From assembly GCF_003334765.1 (NCBI RefSeq), contig NZ_QOWT01000001.1: a DNA stretch of 64,000 nucleotides. One strand, given 5' to 3'. Positions 2,012 to 2,620 of the stretch are shown in pieces (positions within the stretch are counted from its first letter, which is position 1; every line of letters starts with the position of its first letter). Below the pieces are notes generated by a model. The model was not told the DNA's origin, did not search any database, and saw nothing but the letters and a program-made list of their open reading frames with translations. Made by a program: the position numbers and the translations under genes. This DNA is from Escherichia coli (GTDB lineage: Bacteria > Pseudomonadota > Gammaproteobacteria > Enterobacterales > Enterobacteriaceae).

Positions 2012-2116
2012 ATGAACGATCAAATGTTTGTCGAGACACTGATTATCACGTCATCGTTTTTTGCCATTGCTGTTGTACTGGTTTTGTCCGTTCTTCTTAT
2101 CGAACGGACCGGCTAG
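2012..2116 (+). CDS. yoaI: small single-pass membrane protein (34 aa)
   Basis: Read directly from sequence: ATG 2012, [34 protein letters not shown], stop TAG 2114..2116; G-rich SD-like run upstream; not in ORF track because under its length cutoff. Confidence 0.7.
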
Positions 2117-2620
2117 TTACGCAGTGCGGCGGAAATTGACCAGTTCTGGTTGCGCAATGCGCAAATAATCCGCGGTTTTCAAAATAACGGATTTATCCAG
2201 CATGCCTGCATTGAAGGCGATTTCATCAAATCGTTCGAAGAGTAGAGGGTCGGCAACCAGTTTGAGTTTTGGATGGAAGCTGAAAGGGGGGATCGCGCCG
2301 AAGACACAGCCTGTGAGTTCATCGACTTCCGCCGGGCTGGCCAACGAAGCGCGTAATCCGCCTATATGGCTGGCGAGTTGGCTCAGATCGGCCTGTTGAT
2401 CGGCTGCGAGGATCGCCAGAACATGTTGATTTACGCCATTGCCTTTGACTTTACATACCAGTGCCTTAGCACCCTGGCCTAGAGCGGTGCCACGAATTTC
2501 TGACACCGCTTCACATTTACCTACCGCTTCATGGGTAACGACGCGGAAGTCAGCACCTTCTTGTGATAATAAAGCGATTAACCGCTGATGCGTCACGCTT
2601 CCTTTAGCCATTTCAGTCAT
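2117..2620 (-). CDS. yeaK: YbaK/ProX-family aminoacyl-tRNA deacylase
   Basis: ORF track 167 aa; recognised as YeaK. Confidence 0.88.
   Translation of the reverse strand: MTEMAKGSVTHQRLIALLSQEGADFRVVTHEAVGKCEAVSEIRGTALGQGAKALVCKVKGNGVNQHVLAILAADQQADLSQLASHIGGLRASLASPAEVDELTGCVFGAIPPFSFHPKLKLVADPLLFERFDEIAFNAGMLDKSVILKTADYLRIAQPELVNFRRTA

Follow-up and report, generated by a model that had tools for sequence, protein, structure and literature searches.

The small membrane protein gene yoaI and its tail-to-tail contact with yeaK in Escherichia coli

Can an open reading frame (ORF) of only 34 codons, lying tail to tail against the stop codon of its neighbor, encode a protein with a function, and does the contact between the two genes have a meaning of its own? 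This question is raised by the first-pass annotation of the window, i.e. the whole 64,000-nucleotide stretch of Escherichia coli DNA analyzed here, which had placed the end of a small ORF named yoaI at 2116 and the stop codon of the convergent gene yeaK at 2117..2119, with zero spacer. The sequence, the ORF list and the MG1655 annotation all agree exactly with this layout, and both gene names are correct according to the K-12 annotation and the match to the NCBIfam family NF041475. Our reading, to which we assign a probability of about 0.93, is that the frame at 2012-2116 represents the already known gene yoaI, that its product connects the PhoR-PhoB system to EnvZ-OmpR, and that the contact with yeaK reflects compaction of the locus. 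As the annotation and the literature already cover the gene, how it is regulated and a function of its product, yoaI matters little as a discovery.

Identity and conservation of the ORF

On the plus strand, the yoaI frame opens with ATG at 2012-2014, continues for 34 codons and closes with TAG at 2114-2116; no base separates this TAG from the TAA of yeaK, and the two stop codons therefore touch (Table 1). Its two flanking genes, yeaK and yeaL, share one strand and yoaI lies on the other, in the order nimR, yeaL, yoaI, yeaK, dgcJ, cdgI. The yeaK product is annotated in K-12 as a "mischarged aminoacyl-tRNA deacylase", and its similarity to YbaK/EbsC was sub-threshold in our profile search. Relative to E. 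coli K-12 MG1655, the window corresponds to positions 1,812,194-1,876,193 in reverse complement. In the MG1655 RefSeq record, yeaK (1873574..1874077, plus strand) and yoaI (1874078..1874182, minus strand) show the same zero-spacer layout, and these coordinates convert to window positions 2117-2620 and 2012-2116. Base-by-base comparison with MG1655 covered window positions 1-16194 and revealed one mismatch, at 14766, far from yoaI; the remainder was checked through the mapped K-12 coding sequences (CDS). Every K-12 CDS that maps to the window is present there as an intact ORF where the conversion of coordinates places it. At 14766 the window has T instead of the C found at K-12 1861428, in the ydjL-yeaC intergenic region, a change that suggests a K-12 derivative and not the reference isolate. 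Next to yeaK, the dgcJ frame (minus strand, 2663-4333) is open for 556 codons from a GTG at 4333 and abuts the cdgI stop at 4334; the start of dgcJ in the K-12 annotation is at 4153 (496 aa).

Table 1. Coordinates of genes and sequence elements at the yoaI-yeaK locus, in window positions.
Feature	Position	Strand	Basis and remarks
yoaI (b1788) coding sequence, 34 codons and TAG	2012..2116	+	Product YoaI, a small single-pass inner-membrane protein; sequence and ORF reading, K-12 annotation, NCBIfam
yeaK, 167 aa, YbaK-like trans-editing deacylase, convergent with yoaI	2117..2620	-	ORF; stop codon TAA at 2119..2117
yeaL, 148 aa, DUF441 membrane protein	1396..1842	-	Same strand as yeaK; ORF and K-12 annotation
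Shine-Dalgarno-like GGGGG, 6 nt ahead of ATG 2012	2001..2005	+	Read from the sequence; putative ribosome-binding function
Pho box TGTCATCAAACTGCCATT (PhoB binding site), activator site of the yoaI promoter	1945..1962	+	Exact match to the published ChIP-seq motif
Candidate -10 element TAACAAT, 9 nt 3' of the Pho box	1972..1978	+	Putative; same TAACAAT in Escherichia loci
8-bp inverted repeat GTCCGTTC/GAACGGAC, within the last yoaI codons	2087..2110	.	Predicted hairpin, both strands

The translated ORF scored 79.8 bits against the NCBIfam equivalog NF041475 "small membrane protein YoaI" (cut-off 45), with its residues 1-34 aligned on positions 1-34 of the 34-position profile. The window gene is identical to yoaI of E. 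coli K-12 (b1788, NF041475), with the same neighbors yeaK and yeaL and the same Pho box. The single hydrophobic helix attributed to its product by the first-pass annotation is borne out by a mean Kyte-Doolittle hydropathy of 2.81 over the best 17-residue stretch, as expected of one transmembrane (TM) segment. Across E. coli, PGAP applies the label "small membrane protein YoaI"; the yoaI-yeaK junction region was present in 5409 of 5426 complete E. coli genomes, with yoaI annotated there.

Short ORFs are plentiful by chance. Indeed, the first 4.5 kb of the window hold 68 ORFs of at least 20 aa, so that a 34-codon ORF taken by itself is not significant. The yoaI frame could thus be a chance opening in the yeaK-yeaL intergenic region from which no protein is made, in line with earlier tagging studies in rich medium and several stresses, in which YoaI went undetected, and with the lack of the ORF in about half of the related genera. 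Against this stands, in the first place, purifying selection. We surveyed 80 species-level loci anchored on YeaK, independently of yoaI, and 41 of them carried a convergent yoaI ortholog of 32-35 codons without frameshift or early stop; in 39 of these 41 it lies between yeaK and yeaL and converges with yeaK, and the window layout conforms to this arrangement. In a set of 40 sequences (39 of the 41 orthologs and the window sequence), mean pairwise differences at codon positions 1, 2 and 3 were 0.30, 0.14 and 0.51, and the median dN/dS relative to the window yoaI was 0.12. Ser26 was found in 40/40 sequences, Val27 and Glu31 in 39/40 each, and all three residues are present in the window ORF; the same three are invariant in a published 57-species alignment of YoaI. 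Length, residues, the Shine-Dalgarno (SD) motif and the Pho box are likewise conserved. It is conservation in 41 species loci that sets the yoaI ORF apart from chance.

The published protein data speak in the same direction. At the yoaI start, Vellappan et al. (bioRxiv 10.1101/2024.09.13.612970, published as Sci Signal 2025;18:eadu7253) reported a Ribo-RET peak that is about 12-fold higher in low Mg2+, and chromosomal YoaI-SPA was detected by western blot in membrane fractions (10.1101/2024.09.13.612970). The two experiments that the first-pass annotation had called for, start-site ribosome profiling and epitope tagging, thus exist in print for YoaI, and an absence of ribosome occupancy is contradicted by the former. 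Together with genetics that lead from start to function, including the E31A and E31Q substitutions, this published detection of the protein in low Mg2+ refutes a chance ORF, an explanation to which we give practically no credence.

The family to which YoaI belongs is small. An exhaustive search of 1.84 billion representative proteins returned 23 clusters at E <= 1e-3, and we therefore regard the family as narrow and confined to enterobacteria.

Start, promoter and function of YoaI

Since the yoaI frame is open back to GTG 1964 in the ORF list, which would give 50 aa, the product might be longer than annotated, with 50 residues from GTG 1964 or 44 from GTG 1982. Some gene callers do extend the N-terminus, and several representatives of 42-94 aa align to YoaI only in their C-terminal part. 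However, an SD-like motif precedes ATG 2012 and neither of the two GTG codons, and an SD-like 4-mer lies within the last 20 nt before the start in 38/40 sequences of the conservation set. GTG 1964 falls between the Pho box (1945-1962), which it closely follows, and the candidate -10 element, and should therefore be outside the PhoB-dependent transcript. Moreover, similarity among orthologs begins exactly at M1, the upstream DNA being diverged outside the Pho box, the NF041475 profile has a length of 34 positions, and the published Ribo-RET peak is at the annotated yoaI start. A longer product is thus very improbable, and the 50-aa start at GTG 1964 was rejected for its missing SD, its nearness to the Pho box and the start of orthologs and profile at M1. 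The evidence favors the 34-codon yoaI frame that begins at ATG 2012.

The regulatory region bears the marks of the Pho regulon, in that two TGTCA-type direct repeats, 11 bp apart, take the position of a -35 element. The pattern TGTCAT-N5-TG(T/C)CAT was present 60-75 nt upstream of the yoaI start in 35/40 sequences, with diverged flanks. Fitzgerald et al. 2023 (PMC10294691) found PhoB binding and PhoB-dependent RNA polymerase occupancy at yoaI, and TGTCATCAAACTGCCATT is the motif of their PhoB ChIP-seq peak yoaI/yeaL. In the same study, yoaI RNA stood at about 12,266 in the wild type versus 28 in the phoB deletion, a difference of about 450-fold (PMC10294691). Induction of yoaI has also been seen in O157:H7 (Chekabab et al. 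2014, PMC3978041). Transcription is PhoB-dependent and PhoQ-independent, and low Mg2+ raises the YoaI protein post-transcriptionally, again independently of PhoQ (Vellappan et al., 10.1101/2024.09.13.612970). A sigma-70-like match was also present on the minus strand at window 2034-2007 (TCGACA, a 16-nt spacer, TAGCAT), inside the first yoaI codons and directed toward yeaL; RNA made from it would overlap the yoaI transcript at the 5' ends of both, and matches to this consensus occur at chance frequency. In our consensus scans for promoters and terminators, matches were no more numerous than expected from shuffling, and they are read as weak hints.

With regard to function, YoaI interacted strongly with EnvZ in two-hybrid assays and not with PhoQ or PhoR (Vellappan et al., 10.1101/2024.09.13.612970). 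In the same work, yoaI overexpression raised an omrB reporter more than 7-fold in an envZ-dependent manner, ompC went up and ompF down in response to YoaI, and both E31A and E31Q abolished EnvZ binding and activation while membrane levels were unaffected (10.1101/2024.09.13.612970). Deletion of yoaI lowered the omrB reporter 1.4 to 2-fold, similarly with and without stress (10.1101/2024.09.13.612970); the physiological effect of the deletion on this reporter is modest. The contact between YoaI and EnvZ is based on these published two-hybrid and reporter assays, and a 2025 review and a 2026 NAR paper accept YoaI as an established EnvZ modulator. Overexpression also caused a growth defect (delay) that was independent of EnvZ and of Glu31 (Vellappan et al., 10.1101/2024.09.13.612970), and YoaI therefore probably has a second target.

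In the published mechanism, phosphate (Pi) limitation activates PhoR-PhoB, and PhoB on the Pho box at 1945-1962 drives yoaI transcription. Translation of the short mRNA starts at ATG 2012 and yields an inner-membrane protein of 34 residues with a single pass, which is reported to contact EnvZ via Glu31 of its short C-terminal tail and to raise EnvZ-OmpR output, with omrB and ompC up and ompF down. On this evidence, YoaI is a small-protein connector from PhoR-PhoB to EnvZ-OmpR. The experimental steps of this chain were shown by others; the present analysis contributes the identity and coordinates of the ORF and the conservation of the ORF, of its key residues, of the SD and of the Pho box.

Other small membrane proteins offer points of comparison. 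MzrA (127 aa) is, like YoaI, an inner-membrane protein reported to bind EnvZ, to raise EnvZ-OmpR output and to link another two-component system to it. For MzrA this system is CpxAR, for YoaI it is PhoRB. MzrA is about four times longer than YoaI, no sequence relation is claimed between them, and the action proposed for YoaI depends on Glu31, within a cytoplasmic tail of four residues. MgrB (47 aa) and SafA/B1500 (65 aa) share with YoaI a single membrane pass, induction by a two-component system and a reported direct action on a sensor kinase, which is PhoQ for both MgrB and SafA. MgrB inhibits, by negative feedback, the system that induces it, whereas YoaI activates a different kinase.

The junction with yeaK across species

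If yoaI is a genuine gene, is its contact with yeaK special? Among the 41 yoaI-bearing loci, the spacing between the two stop codons was -4 to +30 nt in 39. A 4-bp overlap, in which two stop bases are shared, was found at 8 loci (Salmonella arizonae and diarizonae, Trabulsiella, Yokenella), zero spacing at 7 (six Escherichia, Cedecea davisae) and a gap of +1 to +30 nt at 24 (Citrobacter koseri and amalonaticus, Enterobacter, Lelliottia, Kosakonia); in the last 2 (L029, L031) the gap was about 2.2 kb. Within the window, the ten convergent pairs have spacers of 3, 257, -41, 8, -35, 116, 92, 47, 0 and -44 nt, i.e. 6/10 overlap or lie at most 8 nt apart. With spacers of -4 to +30 nt in different genera and 6/10 tight pairs in the window, the zero spacer is nothing special. 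It is an ordinary case of tight packing, which is general, the exact zero not being selected as such, and the contact between the yoaI and yeaK stops would be simple tail-to-tail compaction.

The two wide loci belong to Enterobacter asburiae INSAq146 and Huaxiibacter chinensis. In L031 the stretch between yeaK and yoaI contains, at 3518-5560 (minus strand), a gene for a 680-aa TonB-dependent copper receptor (TIGR01778, 811 bits), downstream of yoaI and on the same strand, and yoaI may therefore lead a two-gene unit there.

At the yeaK-anchored site, yoaI was absent from 39/80 species loci, among them the Citrobacter freundii complex, Klebsiella, Raoultella, Kluyvera, Atlantibacter, Pseudocitrobacter and others (L009-L013, L015-L018, L021, L023-L025, L035, L041, L043, L046, L047, L049, L053-L054, L056-L058, L060, L062, L065, L067-L068, L070, L072-L075, L077-L080, L082). 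In many of these loci yeaL directly follows yeaK. Given this frequent absence, the connector is dispensable in many enterobacteria. Locus L053 (Enterobacter quasihormaechei) retains only a C-terminal remnant, ...VIASVLLLENG. The two Kosakonia orthologs (L061, L069; 3513-3599) keep the TM and SV..LER parts and have a different, shorter N-terminus without MNDxMF; they probably start with MPSDVLI. In at least 10 clinical E. coli genomes, an IS1A element lies in the 3' part of yeaK (675SK2, L083 835-1532; also hits H2-H10). Starting about 118 bp beyond the stop codon of yoaI, it takes the place of the YeaK C-terminus; yoaI itself is untouched.

A zero-base spacer leaves no room for a terminator, and our terminator scan found none at the yoaI/yeaK junction; each transcript therefore probably runs antisense into the neighboring gene. 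The inverted repeat at 2087-2110 was considered as a terminator and rejected, as no U-run follows the hairpin on either strand. It was also rejected as a conserved RNA element, the pairing being found only in the closest Escherichia relatives, without compensatory changes elsewhere. The first terminator-like sites lie past yeaL (1377-1356, minus strand) and past yeaK (2785-2807, plus strand). Since the scan yielded 5 terminator-like matches versus 6.6 expected, i.e. chance frequency, both sites are weak hints.

This arrangement resembles that of convergent excludons and noncontiguous operons (ExcludonFinder, NAR 2025), the yeaK-yoaI pair being likewise convergent, with no terminator predicted at the junction. 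ExcludonFinder names it among 165 convergent pairs whose transcripts are reported to overlap in half or more of 58 MG1655 transcriptomes (NAR 2025). A functional excludon might be added to the main explanation: PhoB-driven yoaI transcription would lower yeaK, and also yeaL, by collision or by RNase III cleavage of the duplex, and read-through from yeaK would form an antisense RNA covering the whole yoaI mRNA. The lack of both room and a terminator-like site at the junction, with the nearest such sites only beyond yeaL on the minus strand and beyond yeaK on the plus strand, is consistent with this addition, as is the tight spacing of -4 to +30 nt in 39/41 loci. However, the terminator-like matches are only at chance frequency, tight convergent spacing is common in the window without known function, and two species tolerate the 2.2-kb insertion between yeaK and yoaI.

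Table S1 of Fitzgerald et al. (PMC10294691) gives yeaK RNA values of 389/413 in the wild type versus 709/655 in the phoB deletion (log2 -0.8, q = 0.0115), i.e. 1.7-fold lower when PhoB is present, a difference that the published study does not discuss (Fitzgerald et al. 2023, PMC10294691). In the same comparison, yeaL changed by log2 -0.9 (q = 0.28), and the outward neighbors were not down (yeaJ/dgcJ +0.4, yeaM/nimR +0.6; Table S1, PMC10294691). The yeaK decrease would fit mild interference, weakly and in a single data set. On the other hand, the change is small and above the q < 0.01 threshold of the study, yeaL counts are too low to judge, and unrelated genes such as rpsH and rplB shift as much in Table S1 (PMC10294691). 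Compared with excludons that have reciprocal regulation, the sole hint for yeaK-yoaI is this 1.7-fold yeaK difference in one data set, and yeaK-yoaI-yeaL is not among the three noncontiguous operons of ExcludonFinder. We therefore consider a functional excludon doubtful as an addition to simple compaction.

An extension of the same idea would make yeaK, yoaI and yeaL one noncontiguous-operon or excludon unit, in which Pho induction of yoaI turns down YeaK while antisense RNA from yeaK read-through sets YoaI translation. If true, such a unit could account for the post-transcriptional rise of YoaI in low Mg2+; we regard it as unlikely, and more so than the excludon itself. Tail-to-tail compaction of a known gene thus remains our preferred reading of the contact.

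At the other end of yeaL, yeaL (minus strand, ending at 1396) and nimR (plus strand, ending at 1439) are also convergent, with a coding overlap of 44 bp (window 1396-1439). The terminator-like hairpin for yeaL (1377-1356, minus strand) falls inside the nimR coding region, and the yeaL-nimR pair is also on the ExcludonFinder list of convergent pairs with overlapping transcripts.

Small ORFs elsewhere in the window

From the absence of yoaI in an ORF track that omitted short frames, the first-pass annotation had deduced that other proteins of less than 60 aa may be missed in the window. Neither the current K-12 annotation nor a scan restricted to the intergenic DNA provided an example. In that annotation, yoaI is the only CDS of less than 60 aa in the window, and the next are cedA (80 aa), yeaC and ynjH (90 aa each). 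Our small-ORF scan considered frames of 15-59 codons in the 6.7 kb of DNA outside CDS; yoaI was left in as a positive control. Its SD criterion was a wide set of SD-like 4-mers; a contiguous match to TAAGGAGGT misses the GGGGG of yoaI. Among the 176 start/stop combinations of this length in the non-CDS DNA, nothing besides yoaI combined an ATG, an SD-like motif and a hydrophobic helix.

The value of yoaI here is that of a positive control: a genuine 34-residue gene, hidden by a 60-aa ORF filter, was recovered from the raw sequence, and a simple SD-plus-hydrophobicity scan of the intergenic DNA of the window recovers yoaI and nothing more. The only other hydrophobic candidate was a 17-codon TTG ORF (MLSWVIFFLLTVTFLMV; 33896-33949, minus strand) between ynjH and gdhA, which has no SD and probably arose by chance.
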